64,000 nt of DNA from sequence record OR670491. One strand, 5' to 3'. Shown here in pieces: positions 1 through 58,932 of the stretch; the stretch's first letter is position 1; every line of letters starts with the position of its first letter. The DNA is from Escherichia phage vB_EcoM_JNE01. The notes under the pieces were generated by a model. The model was not told the origin of the DNA, made no database searches, and worked only from the letters and a program-made list of their open reading frames with translations. A program made the translations under genes and the position numbers.

Positions 1-888
1 AGTAATTTTTGTTATACATGTTGGGATTGTAAGTCTTCAGTACTGGAAACTAATATAGATAATTTTTCAACCCGCAAAAAATGTCAACACTGTGGTATTA
101 TGAAACAACAGCACGGTACTAGTGTTCCAAAAACTGAAAGTCAATATAGACATGAATGTTTAAAACGTATTAAGCAAGAGAAAAAACCGTGGGAATATAT
201 TAAAACCATTAGCTATAATGACAAGAAAAACTCTAGAGTGGAATTCCACTGTAAAAAGCATGAGCGTAATTTCATTGTTACATTTGATGATTTCTTGGGT
301 AACAAAAGTGGTTGCGTGGACTGTGGAATAGAACGCACTAGTGAGTCCAAAAGAAAAGACCTCAAAACAATGAAATCCCAGTTGATAGGAATTCATGGTG
401 AAAAGTACACCTATGATGATTTTCAATATGATGAAAGTTATGATTATCACAGTACTGAATGTGTATTTGGATGTCCCATACACAAAGACGTGAAGATTTA
501 TAAAACTGTACCAAACTTTAGAAAAACTGATAGAGAACATTGTCCTGTGTGCAACGAACGTGAAGGAACAATGCGTGAACCATCAACACTATACGTCCAA
601 CGTATAACACACCCAAGTAAAGGTGTATTTTATAAGTTAGGTGTAACTAACGATATAAGCCGTAGGATTAGTCAACAAAAACATTATGCAAACACTGAAC
701 ATGAAGTATTGTTGATTGAAGATTTTGAAACTCGTAGAGAAGCACAAGACTTAGAACAGAAAATAAAAGGTACTATAACTAACAAGGTAGTTGATAAAGA
801 AGATTTCCCTGATGGATACACTGAAACTTTCAATGAATCTGATTTAGACTTAGTACTATCCATGATTAAAGAATGGAAAGCTATGTAA
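1..888 (+). CDS. Cys-rich zinc-finger protein with C-terminal T5orf172 (GIY-YIG-like) domain; 5' partial, reading frame is open from base 1
   Basis: Frame of the 100..888 ORF has no stop back to position 1; several CxxC pairs (CYTCWDC, CQHCG, CVDCG, CPVCN); C-terminal block LYVQRITHPSKGVFYKLGVTND...EHEVLL...EAQDLEQKIK resembles T5orf172/MUG113. Confidence 0.55.
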   Translation, partial: SNFCYTCWDCKSSVLETNIDNFSTRKKCQHCGIMKQQHGTSVPKTESQYRHECLKRIKQEKKPWEYIKTISYNDKKNSRVEFHCKKHERNFIVTFDDFLGNKSGCVDCGIERTSESKRKDLKTMKSQLIGIHGEKYTYDDFQYDESYDYHSTECVFGCPIHKDVKIYKTVPNFRKTDREHCPVCNEREGTMREPSTLYVQRITHPSKGVFYKLGVTNDISRRISQQKHYANTEHEVLLIEDFETRREAQDLEQKIKGTITNKVVDKEDFPDGYTETFNESDLDLVLSMIKEWKAM

Positions 889-912
889 CTAAACTAAAAG
901 GAGTTGACAAGG

Positions 913-1650: not shown

Positions 1651-3324
1651 ATGAGCATAAGTTTTAATAACCCATTAGATACTATGACCAGTACTGGTGG
1701 TAACGGGTCATTGGAACTAATAGTGCTTGGTGGTACACCAACTAACCCAAGACCTATCCGTTTCAATTCATCATCAGTCATCATTCCAGTACAGACTTTA
1801 CCAGCGGGTGAAGCGGGTGCATTAGTATTTGACCGAGCGGAAGCAGTACTGAAATATCATAACGGTACTAGCTGGATTGCAGTATATGACACTGATACAA
1901 TTCTTGAACCAATTCGTTTATCTTTAGAAGAAGTAAACAGAAAATTAAATTTAAAAGTAGAAACTGTTTCTTATAGTAGTGGTTCTGTGCCGACTGCAAG
2001 TATCAGTGGTACTAACCTGAATATCGTATTCCCACTTCCTTCATCTTCTGGTGGTACTGGTCCAACTGGTCTATACACTTCAATGAAGCCTGGGGCAATT
2101 ACACAATATTCCTTGACTTCTGGACAATCTGTTAGTAGTATACGTGAACAGATGTCGGGTACTAGCGGTGGACAGAGTGGTAGAAACGGTACACAGAGTT
2201 CACCTTGGAAAACTTCCGATGGTTGGTGTTTTGCTGACGGAATGTGGTGGACATGGGCTGGTGATAGTGGTACAGTAACCAAACAAGTACCGAACCTTAA
2301 CCAGAACGCTTACTTGAAAGGTATGACCACAAGTGGTGTAACCAAAACTGATTCAACTATCAGTGGTAGTGGTTCTATCAGCAGTACTACATTGTCTATT
2401 GCACAGATACCTGCGATGCAATTTAGTTTTAGTGGAACAACTGGTGGTGGTGGTCGTCACAGTCATAGTCAAGCACTAAAAGGTATGGATAGAAGCGGTC
2501 TGAACGCATTGACATCAAGTAATGATAATGGTATACCTACAGTCATTAGTAACATTAACGAAGCTCCTGACCACGTTCACAGCTTCAGTGGTGTGACAAA
2601 CTGGCAAGGTGGTGGTCAAGGCCATACTCATGGACTTTCAGGTGTTGACGTAGACCACTTTAATGTGGCATACTTATACAACATTGCAGAATCCAACGTA
2701 GCATTAAGTGAAACAGTAGCTAACACTCGTTATGTACTGAAAACTGGTGATACAATGTCTGGTGCGTTGTCTATTGCGAACAGTGTTACAGTTCGTTCTA
2801 ATGATACATCATTAGTGTTCTATTTTAGAAATACTTCTGGTGGGGAACGTGCCGCAATTTATCATAGTTCTTCAAACAACACACTACGTTTAAGAAGTGC
2901 AGGTGGTACAGAAGTTTCTATCAACACAAGTGGTGGTTTATCTGCATCATCTCTATCAGCATCTTCTGCTACTATTAGTGGAACAGCAACAGCTAACGCA
3001 GTTTCATCTGCATCATTAACTGTATCTGGTCAATCTGCTGTAGTCGGTGGTAAAAACGTTGTTCGTTCAATCAACAACACGACTGCTGATAGTAATGGTA
3101 ACGTTACATTGACACTAGGTTCTGTGCAGGGTTTCCGTTTGGGTGCTAGAGTACAAAGTGGTAAACTATCAGCATCATCATGGAACTATGCACCAGATGG
3201 ATCAGTATTAGATGGTATATGGTTATCAGGTAATGGTAGTACTGGTACACACGTGGACAACTTTAGTTATCGCCAAATGGAAGTTCTCGTTAATGGAGTT
3301 TGGAAAATGGTAGATGTACTATAA
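1651..3324 (+). CDS. tail fiber protein (receptor-binding type) with three HxH motifs
   Basis: Gly/Ser/Thr-rich beta repeats; LKTGDTMSGALS motif typical of phage fibers; HSHS, HVHSF and HTHGLSG motifs like the metal-binding HxH sites of T4 gp12/gp37 tips; size close to T4 gp12. Confidence 0.7.
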   Translation: MSISFNNPLDTMTSTGGNGSLELIVLGGTPTNPRPIRFNSSSVIIPVQTLPAGEAGALVFDRAEAVLKYHNGTSWIAVYDTDTILEPIRLSLEEVNRKLNLKVETVSYSSGSVPTASISGTNLNIVFPLPSSSGGTGPTGLYTSMKPGAITQYSLTSGQSVSSIREQMSGTSGGQSGRNGTQSSPWKTSDGWCFADGMWWTWAGDSGTVTKQVPNLNQNAYLKGMTTSGVTKTDSTISGSGSISSTTLSIAQIPAMQFSFSGTTGGGGRHSHSQALKGMDRSGLNALTSSNDNGIPTVISNINEAPDHVHSFSGVTNWQGGGQGHTHGLSGVDVDHFNVAYLYNIAESNVALSETVANTRYVLKTGDTMSGALSIANSVTVRSNDTSLVFYFRNTSGGERAAIYHSSSNNTLRLRSAGGTEVSINTSGGLSASSLSASSATISGTATANAVSSASLTVSGQSAVVGGKNVVRSINNTTADSNGNVTLTLGSVQGFRLGARVQSGKLSASSWNYAPDGSVLDGIWLSGNGSTGTHVDNFSYRQMEVLVNGVWKMVDVL

Positions 3325-3839
3325 TGATGAACTTAAAAAACTTTAAGAAGTATAAAAAGTACTCTGAGCCTGATGGGTTCTTATATTTGATATGTGATGA
3401 GGGCATCGATTGGTATGATGCCCGACCATTATTTCAGAAAGACAGTACTAAATTTATGTATGACTCGAAAACTGGTATTATTGTATCAGCGTCACGTGAC
3501 GTAAATGATATAACACCAATGAATTTCTGTGTTTCTGAAGTTGAATATAACGGTGACGTGAATAACTTGTATGGTATGGTTTTTGATGGAGTAAACATAT
3601 CTCCTTATATAGAAACTGAACAGGAACGTGTATCAAGAATAAAAAATGAGTTGACACATATCAAACGAAGTGTTATCATTGAAATGAATCATCTTAAAAT
3701 GACAATTGACTGTGGAGTTGCAACTGATGATGAAATTAAACAGTTTGAAAAATTTCAGAGTTATGTAGTCGAGTTGTCAAAAATCACTGATGATGAAATT
3801 TTGAATGAATCATTCGTGATTCCACATAAACCTGAATAA
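3324..3839 (+). CDS. putative tail fiber assembly chaperone
   Basis: Starts at a TAATG overlap with the fiber gene stop; small protein directly downstream of the fiber gene (positional inference). Confidence 0.35.
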   Translation: MMNLKNFKKYKKYSEPDGFLYLICDEGIDWYDARPLFQKDSTKFMYDSKTGIIVSASRDVNDITPMNFCVSEVEYNGDVNNLYGMVFDGVNISPYIETEQERVSRIKNELTHIKRSVIIEMNHLKMTIDCGVATDDEIKQFEKFQSYVVELSKITDDEILNESFVIPHKPE

Positions 3840-8623: not shown

Positions 8624-8652
8624 GGGGAACATGGAGTTCCCCATAATTTTTT
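8624..8652 (+). terminator. rho-independent terminator (GGGGAAC...GTTCCCC family)
   Basis: GGGGAAC / GTTCCCC stem followed by a T-run; near-identical hairpins at 19030 and 60820. Confidence 0.65.
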
Positions 8653-8676: not shown

Positions 8677-8883
8677 ATGCCACTATATACATATCGTTGT
8701 GAAAAAGAAGAATGCAAACATAGCATGGAAAAAATTGTGAAAATTGCCAATCGTGAGACACCGCATGATTGTCCAAAATGTAGTGGTGAACAAACAATGA
8801 AACTTGAAGTCTTTACACCAGGTGATAAAGGTGCTAACTTATATTTCCGTGGTAAATGGTTTGCAAACACTGGAGGTTACTGA
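8677..8883 (+). CDS. FmdB-family zinc-ribbon protein
   Basis: MPLYTYRCEKEEC...CPKCSG matches the MPxYxYRC...CPxCG zinc-ribbon pattern. Confidence 0.6.
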   Translation: MPLYTYRCEKEECKHSMEKIVKIANRETPHDCPKCSGEQTMKLEVFTPGDKGANLYFRGKWFANTGGY

Positions 8884-8884
8884 T

Positions 8885-9184
8885 ATGAAAATTAAAATGC
8901 AGAATGATTATGTACTGGTTCGTCAGATTGAAGCACAGAACAAAAGTAATGGCGGTATTATCCTCGGTAACGTTGAACCACCTTGTGTTGGTATGGTAAT
9001 CTCCGTTGGGCCAGGTAAAGTACTACCAAATGGTCAAATTGCAGAACACAACATTAACGTTGGTGACATGATTGTTTTTGGTCGTTCATCTCTAAATACT
9101 CCGATCACCGAAGATTTAGGTGGTGGTGAAGATACGTATTACGTAATGAAAATTGAAGAGATTTTTGGTAAGAAACATGGCTAA
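8885..9184 (+). CDS. GroES/Cpn10-type co-chaperonin
   Basis: YVLVRQ...NGGIILGN...GMVISVGPGKVL...VGDMIVFG...YYVMKIEEIFG follows the Cpn10 fold pattern; GGAGG RBS; start overlaps the upstream stop. Confidence 0.7.
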   Translation: MKIKMQNDYVLVRQIEAQNKSNGGIILGNVEPPCVGMVISVGPGKVLPNGQIAEHNINVGDMIVFGRSSLNTPITEDLGGGEDTYYVMKIEEIFGKKHG

Positions 9185-9902
9185 AAAAAGATACTTGCCT
9201 TTCTGTCTAGTCCCTGCTCATTGGGGACTTTCAGGGAAAGCAAAAGAGATTGCAAAAGCATACTATTACAACGATGATTATGAAGCAGATATTATAGTTG
9301 CAGAACTTACATATCTTACTCCATATGAAGTTGAAAAGGCTCAATTAGATATCAAGAAGAAGTATGGAGTTATCTCCGATGAACTTGAGTATCTAATTGC
9401 ACTTGCTGATTTAGATTTAAAATACTCAAAGATTACTCGTGATGAATATAATGTAAAGATACTTGATGCAAAATTAAGTACTGAAGCAATCACTAAACAA
9501 GAGTATGATCTTGAGATTATAGAACTAATGCCCGATAGTGATGATAAGTTATTAAAAACTATTGAGTACGCATATAGTTATGGTGAAATTACTCAACAAG
9601 AGTATTCTAAGGAAATCTTTACTTTACGTAAAGAACCTTGGATTGATTTGGATGTAATTCTAAACGATTCAAATGAAGTAGAATTTATATTTGATTATAA
9701 TGAATACTTCGTTAAGAAACTAAAAGATGAAGGTCATCCAGGAAATGATGAAGAAGAACTAATTGATAACTTCATTCGTGACTTGGGTCGCAAATTAGCA
9801 ACTGACGAGTTTAGTGATAACTATGACGTAAAGCTAGTAGCCGAGAACGAGGGGATCGAGAACCTACCTGGTTTACCTGACGGCTTTAAAAGATACAAAT
9901 AA
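9177..9902 (+). CDS. hypothetical protein with ITxxEY repeats
   Basis: ORF from the ATG at 9177; three ITRDEY / ITKQEY / ITQQEY repeats. Confidence 0.5.
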   Translation: MAKKRYLPFCLVPAHWGLSGKAKEIAKAYYYNDDYEADIIVAELTYLTPYEVEKAQLDIKKKYGVISDELEYLIALADLDLKYSKITRDEYNVKILDAKLSTEAITKQEYDLEIIELMPDSDDKLLKTIEYAYSYGEITQQEYSKEIFTLRKEPWIDLDVILNDSNEVEFIFDYNEYFVKKLKDEGHPGNDEEELIDNFIRDLGRKLATDEFSDNYDVKLVAENEGIENLPGLPDGFKRYK

Positions 9903-9908
9903 AAAAAA

Positions 9909-9933
9909 GGAGAGCAAAAATGCTCTCCTTTTC
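9909..9933. terminator. bidirectional rho-independent terminator between convergent genes
   Basis: GGAGAGCA / TGCTCTCC stem flanked by an A-run on the 5' side and a T-run on the 3' side. Confidence 0.65.
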
Positions 9934-11465: not shown

Positions 11466-17683
<6,218 letters not shown>

Positions 17684-24892: not shown

Positions 24893-25583
24893 TCCAGTTT
24901 TTCAATGCAAATTTTGTGATCGTGAATTCAAACGTGAAGATACCGTAAACACTCATAAATGTGTTAAGCGTGATCGTTACGACGACAGAGAGAGCCGCCC
25001 GATGAGGGAGGCTTTTCGTCTTTATATGCAATTCATGGAAATCAATAAGTTTCCTTTCAAGAAAGGAGTGGAACCTTTCATTGGTTTCATTAAGTCAAAG
25101 TACTTTAATGATTTCTATGACTTCGCAACATACTATTTAAATAATCGTGATATTTTACGTATTGATGAATTCACAGAACATTTAATGCGTACTGGTACTC
25201 CAATTACAATGTGGAGTACATACAAAGAGAAAGACAGTTGGGTACTGAGTTGTATCCGTTCAGAACTGCCAAGAGATGGTGTAGTTCGAAGCATCAACGC
25301 ATTAGTTGAGTGGGGAGAAACCGTACACAAAGAATGGAATACTTTCTTCCAGAACGTGAGTTCAGCCCGTGCAATCTCGTGGATTGAGAGTGGTAAGATC
25401 TCACCTTGGATTCTATGGTTATCTCCAAGAGAAAGTGTTAACAATTTCATGTCAAACTTCTCACATTCAGAATTAGAATATATACTTAAATACATTGACT
25501 ATAGTTACTTTGAGATTAAAACAATCAAGTACCGTAGTGATTGTGATAATATACGAGCTATGCTCAAGGAAGCAGGATTATGA
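24873..25583 (+). CDS. hypothetical protein with N-terminal C2HC-type zinc-finger-like motif
   Basis: CKFCDREFKREDTVNTHKC near the N-terminus. Confidence 0.5.
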   Translation: MAKKSSSPVFQCKFCDREFKREDTVNTHKCVKRDRYDDRESRPMREAFRLYMQFMEINKFPFKKGVEPFIGFIKSKYFNDFYDFATYYLNNRDILRIDEFTEHLMRTGTPITMWSTYKEKDSWVLSCIRSELPRDGVVRSINALVEWGETVHKEWNTFFQNVSSARAISWIESGKISPWILWLSPRESVNNFMSNFSHSELEYILKYIDYSYFEIKTIKYRSDCDNIRAMLKEAGL

Positions 25584-38615: not shown

Positions 38616-39389
38616 ATGAAAATTGATTATCACAATCCAATCCCATTAGATTTCATTGAGGAATTTTGGGACGAGCTTGACATAGATCTTATTGCAAGGT
38701 ATCAAAAATTACCGGAAGATTTCATAAAGAAACATTTTGATAAAATGAATCCTAATATGTTAGTTCGATATCAAACAATGACTACCGATTTTATTAAAGA
38801 AAAATGGGAATGGTTTGATAAAAACGTAATTGCAACGTATGTGGTTATGCCATTGGAATTGATAATGGAAAAGTGGGATGATTTTAAAGGTAATTTTCTT
38901 GATACCGTTGCGAAATATCAAACAATGACTGTGGATTTCATTAAAGAAAAATGGAATGACCTTACTGAATTTTCCGATGGTGTAATGTCAGAAATATCCA
39001 GATATCAAAAATTAACTCTTGACTTCATACAAGAAAAATGGGATTATATTGATAAAAATTATATCTCTTATTATCAAACACTAACAGTTGATTTTATAAA
39101 AGAAAATTTAGCTGCATTAAATGTCGCTGCCGTATCCGCATTCCAAATTATGGAAGACGATGTTCGAGCTATGCTAGGATTAAATTCACCTGCTGAAACG
39201 ATCACAGGAAAACAAATTCTTGCTTTTGATCCGTGTGCTGATGGGATGGCACGATATCATGCACATACGCCAGATGACAACACTGTACTGACGTGGAATG
39301 AACTTTTAGAAAAACATTTAGGTACACAAGCTGGCATCAGTGACATTCACTGGTTGTCGTATAAATTGGGTCATAAAATTAATACATAA
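38616..39389 (+). CDS. tandem-repeat protein (7 copies of a ~24-aa DFIKEKW...YQTL unit) between nrdA and nrdB
   Basis: Repeats: LDFIEEFWDELD..ARYQKL, EDFIKKHFDKMN..VRYQTM, TDFIKEKWEWFDKN..TY, LELIMEKWDDF..KYQTM, VDFIKEKWNDL..RYQKL, LDFIQEKWDYIDKN..YYQTL, VDFIKENL; distinct C-terminal ~75 aa. Confidence 0.6.
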   Translation: MKIDYHNPIPLDFIEEFWDELDIDLIARYQKLPEDFIKKHFDKMNPNMLVRYQTMTTDFIKEKWEWFDKNVIATYVVMPLELIMEKWDDFKGNFLDTVAKYQTMTVDFIKEKWNDLTEFSDGVMSEISRYQKLTLDFIQEKWDYIDKNYISYYQTLTVDFIKENLAALNVAAVSAFQIMEDDVRAMLGLNSPAETITGKQILAFDPCADGMARYHAHTPDDNTVLTWNELLEKHLGTQAGISDIHWLSYKLGHKINT

Positions 39390-57363: not shown

Positions 57364-57675
57364 ATGTTCAATCCATTTTTTGACCCATCAACCTTTACTG
57401 ACAAAGAACTTCAGTTGAAGATTAACGAACAATCTATGCGTATTGCATCAGCCAGAGCAGCAGGGATGGGTGATGCTATTGTATCTAACATGCAAGTAGT
57501 ACTAAATCAGTGCTATGATGAAATTGAACTACGTCAAGGTACTAAAGAGAAAAGTACCTATGATGACGCAGATCCTTGTGTGTTTGATATGGAATCGTAC
57601 TTAACTGATAACGATGAGGATAGTAAGAAGAAAAATGAAAGTTCAAGGAAACAGATTTATAAGTCCCAATGGTGA
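57364..57675 (+). CDS. hypothetical protein
   Basis: ORF starting 2 nt after the upstream stop. Confidence 0.4.
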   Translation: MFNPFFDPSTFTDKELQLKINEQSMRIASARAAGMGDAIVSNMQVVLNQCYDEIELRQGTKEKSTYDDADPCVFDMESYLTDNDEDSKKKNESSRKQIYKSQW

Positions 57676-58153
57676 TGTAAAATGTAACCTGAACTCTGTT
57701 GTGTATGCAATCAACTGTGGTGCTGATATTCAGTACTTGCAGTTGGTTGACATTGATGAACCAGAACGACAGAAATTCAATGATAACTGTAGAAAATTCG
57801 GGTTAGAGCAGCGTATGCTGGATTACGAAATTGAGCATGATAAAAATCATGAACTTTGGCGTTATGATGCGGTATACGATAAGATTAACCTACGTGATTT
57901 TTTCCTGGAAAAATGTACATCTGACGCAGCACGTGAACGTGTTATGTATGAAATTGATTTATTCGAACACTACAATATGACCAAATTATTGCGTTGTATG
58001 ATTTGGCTAGTGGACTACATGGAAGACCATGAAATCTTCTGGGGCTTAGGTCGTGGTAGTTCAGTAGCTTCATATTGTTTGTTCCTGATTGATTTGCACA
58101 TGGTTGACTCACTGAAGTATAACCTAGATGTGAATGAATTTTTGAAATGGTAG
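57635..58153 (+). CDS. hypothetical protein
   Basis: ORF in the +1 frame overlapping the previous ORF by about 41 nt. Confidence 0.45.
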   Translation: MKVQGNRFISPNGDVKCNLNSVVYAINCGADIQYLQLVDIDEPERQKFNDNCRKFGLEQRMLDYEIEHDKNHELWRYDAVYDKINLRDFFLEKCTSDAARERVMYEIDLFEHYNMTKLLRCMIWLVDYMEDHEIFWGLGRGSSVASYCLFLIDLHMVDSLKYNLDVNEFLKW

Positions 58154-58162
58154 AGAAACACG

Positions 58163-58171
58163 TGATATAAT
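58163..58171 (+). promoter_or_regulatory. early-type promoter (TGATATAAT)
   Basis: ACACGTGATATAAT upstream of 58213. Confidence 0.5.
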
Positions 58172-58212: not shown

Positions 58213-58557
58213 ATGTCTAAACATACAACTTATCGCGGTACTATTATTGATATGGATATGCTTAAGTATCAGAACCAACATCAAGTTGCATTAGGTAATG
58301 CAAACCTAAATGCTCGCGGTGATAAAATCGGTTCCGGTGGTACTGTGATTAAAACACGTGAAGAACTCATTCAAGAGAAAGAACGTGAAATGCAAATTCC
58401 TGACTTTGTTCCTGAGCACCAACTTCACAGTACTGAAATCGGTACAGACGATGGTTGGGATGATTCTAGCTTTGAAGTAGAACCATTCGAACAGGTAGAA
58501 CAAGTTTCTGAAGAGAAAAAAGCACCACGTCGTGCAAAAACTAAAGATCAGGAGTAA
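58213..58557 (+). CDS. hypothetical protein
   Basis: ORF; acidic C-terminal half. Confidence 0.45.
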   Translation: MSKHTTYRGTIIDMDMLKYQNQHQVALGNANLNARGDKIGSGGTVIKTREELIQEKEREMQIPDFVPEHQLHSTEIGTDDGWDDSSFEVEPFEQVEQVSEEKKAPRRAKTKDQE

Positions 58558-58560
58558 TCA

Positions 58561-58887
58561 ATGGCTGATAAAGTTATGGTAGCATGTAAAGGTAAAGTAC
58601 TGGTTACTGAGCTTGAGCATGGTGAACGTAAAACTGCTGGTGGCATTGTACTAACCAGTGATGATGGTAAAATTCGTGGCATTCGTTGTCGTTGGGCGAA
58701 AGTCTATTCTGTTGGTGAAGACATTACTGACATTAAAGAAGGTCAATGGATTCTAATTGACCACGGTCGTTGGTCACGTACAATTGAGATTGATGGTATT
58801 CAACTAAACCTAGTTGATTATCCCGCAGCAGTAAGCCTGGTATCTGATGAAGACCCACGTATCAAAGCACAAACCTTTGGTCGTTAA
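58561..58887 (+). CDS. 31: putative T4 gp31-type co-chaperonin (GroES fold)
   Basis: KTAGGIVLTSDDGKIRGIRCRWAKVYSVGEDITDIKEG resembles T4 gp31 [29 protein letters not shown]; 108 aa versus 111 aa. Confidence 0.5.
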   Translation: MADKVMVACKGKVLVTELEHGERKTAGGIVLTSDDGKIRGIRCRWAKVYSVGEDITDIKEGQWILIDHGRWSRTIEIDGIQLNLVDYPAAVSLVSDEDPRIKAQTFGR

Positions 58888-58901: not shown

Positions 58902-58932
58902 AGCTCTGAACTATGTTCAGGGCTTTTTATTT
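58902..58932 (+). terminator. rho-independent terminator
   Basis: AGCTCTGAAC / GTTCAGGGCT stem with one G-U pair, followed by TTTTT. Confidence 0.6.

Follow-up and report, generated by a model that had tools for sequence, protein, structure and literature searches.

A GroES-Type and a Roofless, gp31-Like Cpn10-Fold Protein Encoded by a Rak2-Like Escherichia Phage

Introduction

The bacterial co-chaperonin GroES and its phage T4 counterpart gp31 dock on GroEL through a glycine and a hydrophobic tripeptide in their mobile loop; in chloroplasts, Cpn10 and Cpn20 polypeptides form a hetero-heptameric ring. The mobile loop of gp31 comprises 22 residues vs. 16 in GroES (PMC6318259), and this long loop, together with the absent roof, has been credited with the larger, more open cage of the GroEL-gp31 complex (PMC6318259; PMC5649160). 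Other virus-encoded co-chaperonins, among them CocO of phage RB49 and clusters from marine viromes, have lost the roof hairpin and kept the mobile-loop motif (PMC5649160). Two GroES-like ORFs were already reported in the phage CBB paper (2017), and the XacN1 paper names a GroES chaperonin among the clade-shared genes that are absent from T4.

Here, two co-chaperonin genes are compared with these systems; they were found in a 64,000-nucleotide stretch of Escherichia phage vB_EcoM_JNE01 (record OR670491), in the following termed the window. An initial annotation had placed two distinct GroES-fold proteins in this one phage, and both ORFs, ORF A at 8885..9184 and ORF B at 58561..58887, indeed encode single-domain proteins on the + strand for which the Cpn10 beta-barrel fold was found. 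A BLASTP comparison of ORF A with ORF B revealed no significant similarity between them.

ORF A, a Conventional GroES-Type Protein

The 99-residue product of ORF A is matched nearly over its full length (residues 2-96) by the Pfam Cpn10 profile (PF00166), at 58.7 bits (cut-off, 21.1); it also matches phrog_3188, “co-chaperonin GroES” (E 3.4e-26), and solved GroES chains (E 5e-10 to 1e-8), and shares 36% identity with E. coli GroES over 67 residues. The AlphaFold2 model is of moderate quality (pLDDT 78.2) and was built from a shallow alignment; the solved structures that match it best are co-chaperonins, for the most part GroES, with TM scores of 0.62-0.73. Profile, PHROG and structural matches thus bear out the original description of this ORF as a canonical GroES type.

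The mobile loop of ORF A (residues 18-33; 8936..8983, + strand) contains the sequence GGIIL and lies between the modeled strands 9-17 and 34-41; within it, the A family is invariant at G23, G24, I25, and L27. The roof hairpin (residues 43-59; 9011..9061, + strand) has the same span as in E. coli GroES and is modeled as a hairpin of residues 45-46 and 52-53. In comparison with bacterial GroES, the mobile loop is two residues shorter, and the A family has invariant residues of its own (P33, C34, H55, and an FGK motif); in all, 32 positions are invariant, and they are kept across a divergence that extends down to 40-55% identity. ORF A is of the bacterial type: a conventional GroES that has its roof and a slightly shortened mobile loop. 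A recent capture of a host groES gene was considered and rejected, since the identity of ORF A to E. coli and other cellular GroES is only ~27-36%.

ORF B, a Roofless Cpn10-Fold Protein

By its sequence, the 108-residue product of ORF B is a marginal member of the Cpn10 family (PF00166); the Pfam match of 22.9 bits is just over the 21.1 cut-off, and it covers residues 10-64 only. The AlphaFold2 model is confident and all-beta (pLDDT 89.8, pTM 0.82), and its best matches among solved structures are GroES and gp31, with co-chaperonins ranking above dehydrogenases. Each of the two ORFs therefore has a Cpn10 profile match, and the predicted fold of each is that of Cpn10. The mobile loop of ORF B (residues 17-43; 58609..58689, + strand) carries the sequence GGIVL between the modeled strands 12-16 and 44-51; in the B family, G28 is invariant and I29 nearly so, with variants of the form xGI(I/V)(I/L). 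A roof hairpin was sought in ORF B, and none is present in the model; at its position, a short link (residues 53-60; 58717..58740, + strand) is indicated by the model, by a span of 9 residues, and by a 9-residue gap in the hhalign alignment of the B family with the A family.

The comparison of mobile and roof loops that the initial annotation had proposed was carried out on three family alignments (B, gp31, and A) and on E. coli GroES, with spans measured between anchor columns: the mobile-loop span from the end of strand 1 to the glycine of the conserved V/I-G (“VG”) motif, and the roof span from this glycine to the G(D/Q) motif. In the B family, the mobile-loop span is 36-37 residues in all 108 sequences and the roof span 9 residues in 105 of 108; the corresponding values are 36 (30 of 31 sequences) and 11 (31 of 31) in the gp31 family, 30 (13 of 15) and 18 (15 of 15) in the A family, and 32 and 18 in E. 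coli GroES. The glycine and the hydrophobic tripeptide of the mobile loop are kept in all three families. ORF B differs from bacterial GroES in the absence of the roof hairpin, in a loop that is longer by 4-5 residues, and in its different C-terminal half. The clearest likeness of ORF B to T4 gp31 is one of architecture: both have lost the roof hairpin of GroES and have a mobile loop that exceeds that of GroES in length. ORF B also fits the description that Marine et al. (2017) gave of roofless co-chaperonins, namely RB49 CocO and GroES clusters from marine viromes.

A GroES-fold protein might also have been recruited for a task other than closing GroEL, for example within the replication module, where ORF B is located. 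We regard this as very improbable for ORF B: across the 108 aligned B sequences, the glycine and hydrophobic tripeptide occur in the long loop at the same position as in GroES and gp31, the top structural matches are all co-chaperonins and stand above the dehydrogenases, and the fusion of B-type domains to bona fide GroES-type domains in relatives (see below) points to the same machine.

The B family has a set of invariant or nearly invariant residues (R44, W45, W63, R70, W71, and R73) that are without counterpart in GroES or gp31. In the alignment, the invariant R70-W71 pair of ORF B falls at the position of GroES Tyr71, a residue that we take to face the cavity in the GroEL-GroES structure; since these positions correspond, ORF B may alter the chemistry of the cage ceiling as well.

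The relationship between ORF B and gp31 was further examined by profile comparisons, using as T4 gp31 query all 111 residues of PDB 1G31. The profile phrog_931, “head morphogenesis”, matches residues 1-78 of ORF B (profile positions 1-80 of 109; 68 bits, E 9.8e-19). T4 gp31 matches the same profile over its full length (E 3.7e-50), whereas E. coli GroES matches phrog_3188 (E 4e-31) and reaches just E 0.022 with phrog_931; phrog_931 is therefore the gp31 PHROG, and it is the one that ORF B prefers. As a caveat, this match is partly circular, and it was rejected as proof of gp31 membership: an HMM of 31 gp31 sequences alone scores ORF B at just 9.1 bits, and for this reason phrog_931 most likely itself contains B orthologs of the Rak2 type. 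Against ORF B, the A-family HMM yields 9.4 bits; conversely, the B-family HMM gives medians of 8.2 bits for gp31 members and 7.7 bits for A members, and 9.7 bits for E. coli GroES. A phmmer search of ORF B against the PDB found no match to gp31 (1G31), and the only sequence match among these structures was Chlamydomonas Cpn11, which is weak (E 0.2); on this search, direct sequence homology between ORF B and gp31 was rejected. In profile-profile comparison (hhalign), the B family is nearer to the gp31 family (94.6%, E 7e-8, 71 columns) than to the A family (76.5%, E 2e-5, 69 columns); the gp31 and A families match each other at 57.4% (E 1e-4, 46 columns).

The gp31 alignments end at residues 64-78 of ORF B (at residue 64 in hhalign), which indicates that the C-terminal third of ORF B is unrelated to gp31. 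The conserved C-terminal third of T4 gp31 (PDB 1G31, 2CGT; KKPKEIKQKFVTCHYK...CVYK) has no counterpart in ORF B, nor are the invariant gp31 residues K97, V99, H102, and Y110 matched in the B family; instead, ORF B has the R/W signature of its own. The initial likening of ORF B to gp31 is supported in part: in its favor are the absent roof, the longer loop and the profile-profile match, and against it the absent phmmer match, the low score of the gp31-only HMM and the C-terminal third. In our reading, ORF B represents a roofless Cpn10 lineage of its own that is built in the style of gp31, and is not an ortholog of gp31.

Gene Neighborhoods

ORF A is preceded by a Shine-Dalgarno sequence, GGAGG (8872..8876, + strand), 8 nt 5′ of its ATG, and forms the middle of a unit of three tight genes with a hairpin at either side. 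The upstream gene (8677..8883, + strand) encodes a 68-residue zinc-ribbon protein (Pfam Zn_ribbon_8, 39.2 bits; phrog_13665), and its stop at 8883 is one base ahead of the ATG of ORF A. The downstream gene (9177..9902, + strand) encodes a 241-residue “virion structural protein” (phrog_13349, E 8e-101) and overlaps ORF A by 8 nt, ATGGCTAA; the gene order is the same in relatives. The hairpins at both sides are consensus matches: a terminator-like hairpin after the sliding-clamp gene, upstream of the unit (8624..8642, + strand), and a two-way terminator-like hairpin that would end it (9905..9932, no strand assigned), with a stem of 12-15 bp and T-runs on both strands.

ORF B has a Shine-Dalgarno sequence, AGGAG (58550..58554, + strand), 6 nt 5′ of its ATG. 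It follows an ORF of 114 residues (58213..58557, + strand; phrog_14844, no Pfam match) with which it is probably co-transcribed. Ahead of this two-gene unit lies the best promoter-like site of the scanned region, a sigma-70-like consensus match with an extended -10 element (58142..58171, + strand; TTGAAA, 18 nt, TG-TATAAT; 11 of 12 positions). Past the ORF B stop, at a distance of 15 nt, a hairpin resembling an intrinsic terminator (58902..58924, + strand) consists of a 10-bp stem followed by TTTTATTT, likewise by consensus. The differing promoter contexts of ORF A and ORF B, judged from consensus matches, suggest that the two genes may be expressed at different times; in the PA5oct omics paper, which was checked for expression timing, chaperonins are nowhere mentioned.

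The gene order of the ORF B locus, with a DNA polymerase III alpha fragment, a small ORF, the B-type gene, and a clamp loader gene, recurs in the metagenomic contigs L004, L005, and L006, where a small ORF likewise precedes the B-type gene. In the window, DNA polymerase III alpha is represented only by short, separate ORFs; the one at 57614..58153 encodes 179 residues and matches positions 16-95 of the 260 of PF07733. A fragment is also found at 25074..25712 of L001, and fragments of 157-175 residues lie before the B-type gene in the metagenomic relatives. Since the fragment recurs in these relatives, the split of the polymerase gene looks ancient and not like a sequencing error.

Distribution of the Two Genes

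Both proteins have conserved counterparts in many phage genomes, with identities of 40-100%, and neither is therefore a chance ORF. Escherichia phage Turkey5 (PQ471516, 351 kb) is 98.7-99.0% identical in both regions, and the 121Q/PBECO4/phAPEC6 group of Rak2-like jumbo phages shows ~80-84% identity in both. In Turkey5, both ORF A and ORF B are annotated as “chaperonin”; elsewhere in GenBank, ORF A is labeled “co-chaperonin GroES”, and ORF B “chaperonin”, “co-chaperone GroES”, or “head morphogenesis”. By tblastn, ORF B was found in 88 phage records, comprising the enterobacterial Rak2-like phages, PA5oct-type Pseudomonas phages, Atu_ph07, SCTP-2, Phosso, and Xoo-sp13; ORF A was found in 73 phage records, all of them from enterobacterial Rak2-like phages and one Vibrio phage. 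The record counts of the two ORFs match closely for Escherichia (33/33), Salmonella (8/8), Erwinia (8/8), and Klebsiella (11/10), which indicates that about 70 sequenced Rak2-like genomes contain both genes. The pairing had been called unusual; its presence in ~70 Rak2-like phages, the existing GenBank annotations and the CBB report of 2017 speak against this. The pairing of a GroES type with a gp31-style protein is real, already known, and ordinary for the Rak2-like clade, and in this respect the window adds nothing beyond existing annotation.

A profile search of 1.84 billion representative proteins recovered 560 B-type representatives (clustered at 50% identity) at E <=1e-3, 279 of them at E <=1e-10; the B family is large, and far below the size to be expected if the profile had absorbed cellular GroES. 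For ORF A, a word-indexed homolog search found only 14 clusters.

This distribution bears on the question of whether the pair could be a redundant supply, in which ORF A raises the amount of GroES-type lid, or suits the GroEL of particular hosts, and serves the same clients as ORF B. The addition of ORF A in one branch only, with ORF B present clade-wide, is consistent with such a role, as is the observation that, with ordinary substrates, gp31 can largely stand in for GroES and vice versa (PMC6318259); the CBB paper also cites phage co-chaperonins as able to replace GroES. However, a dispensable spare would hardly be kept with 32 invariant positions at 40-55% identity, and the roof and loop geometry of the A family is constant, unlike that of B. 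Redundancy is for these reasons held to be fairly unlikely, and separate lids with separate tasks are preferred.

Other Features of the Window

Several further observations emerged from the comparison with Turkey5, to which the remaining window is ~98-99% identical. The large terminase gene (13670..16330) is a single ORF of 886 residues with an in-frame insertion of 340 residues at 13937..14956; the insertion (ALANN...PTHN, followed by T) splits a Walker-A-like motif, ARQMGK|T, and matches the Pfam families LAGLIDADG_3 (41.7 bits), Hom_end (23.5 bits), and, weakly, Intein_splicing. On account of these matches it is a putative intein, with alanine as its first residue. The Turkey5 terminase is without the insertion and is annotated as two overlapping CDS. 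Between the genes for the ribonucleotide reductase alpha and beta subunits, ~740 bp at 38616..39389 are absent from Turkey5; this insertion amounts to an ORF of 257 residues that has no Pfam match and contains approximately six “YQTMTVDFIKEKW”-like repeats. Two segments just 3′ of the major capsid gene, 1..890 and 2934..3838, show sequence divergence or a length difference relative to Turkey5.

Next to each other in the Turkey5 equivalent of the window (L002, 13571..14630) lie genes labeled as translation initiation factor IF-3, which was also noted in the phage CBB paper, and as the Clp protease adaptor ClpS. IF-3 and ClpS add to the two co-chaperonins as phage-carried genes for host proteostasis and translation.

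Tandem and Fused Cpn10 Proteins in Uncultured Relatives

Among the best 150 of the 560 B-type representatives, six proteins contain more than one Cpn10 domain. In P0201, a GroES-type domain (residues 4-91) is followed by a B-type domain (97-194), and in P0222 a B-type domain (5-105) is followed by a GroES-type domain (129-218); in P0306, the B-type domain comes after a weak GroES-type domain, in both P0190 and P0191 it comes after a diverged B-like one, and P0189 has three B-type domains. The last four proteins each occur in two assemblies or contigs; the other two, P0201 and P0222, are singletons from contigs of 2-3 kb, and both of their ORFs read through uninterrupted. Of the fused genes that were looked up, those with informative neighbors (P0201, P0190, and P0306) occupy a locus that is orthologous to that of ORF B. 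The tandem and fused loci are located at L004 922..1840, L003 1867..2532, L005 4001..4627, and L006 2094..2696; most of them follow a Pol III alpha fragment and small ORFs and, where the contig reaches that far, precede the clamp loader gene, and the neighborhood in L003 is unlike that of the ORF B locus. In L004, a single-domain Cpn10 gene of 99 codons lies directly 5′ of the two-domain gene that fuses a GroES-type with a B-type domain. A literature search for tandem phage co-chaperonins returned only papers on plastids.

A described parallel is the chloroplast system (Cpn11, Cpn20, and Cpn23), where several Cpn10-type subunits serve one system, as they may in a Rak2-like phage; the tandem two-domain forms of the chloroplast system are mirrored by the fused B-type proteins of the uncultured relatives, whereas ORF A and ORF B each encode one domain and lie 49 kb from each other. 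The fused forms hint, weakly, at mixed rings of GroES-type and B-type subunits. In its full extent, this idea would make the B type, with its 560 representatives, a third large phage co-chaperonin lineage, distinct from GroES and gp31, that routinely forms mixed rings with GroES-type domains and, in the phage studied here, contributes with ORF A to one hetero-heptameric lid, which seems doubtful to us.

The co-assembly of ORF A and ORF B into a single hetero-heptameric ring on GroEL, considered for itself, draws on the single polypeptides that join GroES-type and B-type domains in either order (P0201 and P0222), on the same-locus orthologs with two or three tandem domains (P0190, P0191, P0306, and P0189), and on the single-domain Cpn10 gene that adjoins the two-domain gene in L004; three two-domain chains and one single-domain chain would supply seven domains, and the only PDB sequence match of ORF B is a chloroplast protein, Chlamydomonas Cpn11. 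However, P0201 and P0222 are singletons on short contigs, where the junction may be an assembly or read error, and ORF A and ORF B belong to separate transcription units 49 kb apart. ORF B also occurs without ORF A in PA5oct-like and Atu_ph07-like phages and therefore must work alone there. Taking these points together, we consider a mixed lid improbable and favor two separate ones. If true, the fused and tandem forms of uncultured jumbo phages would be a viral parallel to chloroplast Cpn20; if real, they deserve a short separate study.

Two Putative Lids for the Host GroEL

Using E. coli GroEL as a tblastn query, 252 phage records were found, from phages of Vibrio, Flavobacterium, Staphylococcus, and others; Escherichia, with its 33 Rak2-like records, is absent among the organisms listed, of which the smallest has a count of 7. 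The annotation of the Turkey5 counterpart of the window likewise lists no GroEL. Since no phage GroEL was detected in these comparisons, the GroEL of the host is the likely partner of both ORF A and ORF B.

The reading that we favor, and consider probable, is that the phage encodes two separate putative lids for the host GroEL that differ in cage geometry, with ORF B as a functional analog of gp31 and ORF A as a conventional GroES. Both proteins would act as co-chaperonin lids. In this reading, ORF B, present throughout the wider clade, is the older gene, and ORF A is restricted to the enterobacterial and Vibrio branch. The two loop changes in ORF B are the ones that enlarge and open the GroEL-gp31 cage. 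Its gene lies in the replication module, in a two-gene unit after the sigma-70-like promoter match, and its place between Pol III alpha fragment and clamp loader genes is kept even by distant uncultured relatives. Each protein would form its own heptamer, and the two lids would give GroEL cages of unlike geometry, perhaps at different times; cages that differ in geometry or timing would in turn serve different sets of phage proteins, in keeping with the different client specificities that the initial annotation had suggested.

The T4 system suggests a major capsid protein as a client, and here the comparison shows a difference: the capsid protein gp23, the client of T4 gp31, has 56 kDa (PMC6318259), whereas the likely capsid client in a Rak2-like phage, judged by the major capsid protein of phAPEC6, a close relative, has 42 kDa. 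A capsid protein of 42 kDa should therefore fit under an ordinary GroES, and the logic of a bigger cage for a big capsid protein is weaker for a Rak2-like phage than for T4. The lid pair would constitute a natural experiment, in which one GroEL is served by two lids with unlike cage geometry in one infected cell. It could reveal how lid architecture selects clients and, with a likely capsid client of only 42 kDa, it could show whether the roofless design has reasons other than client size.
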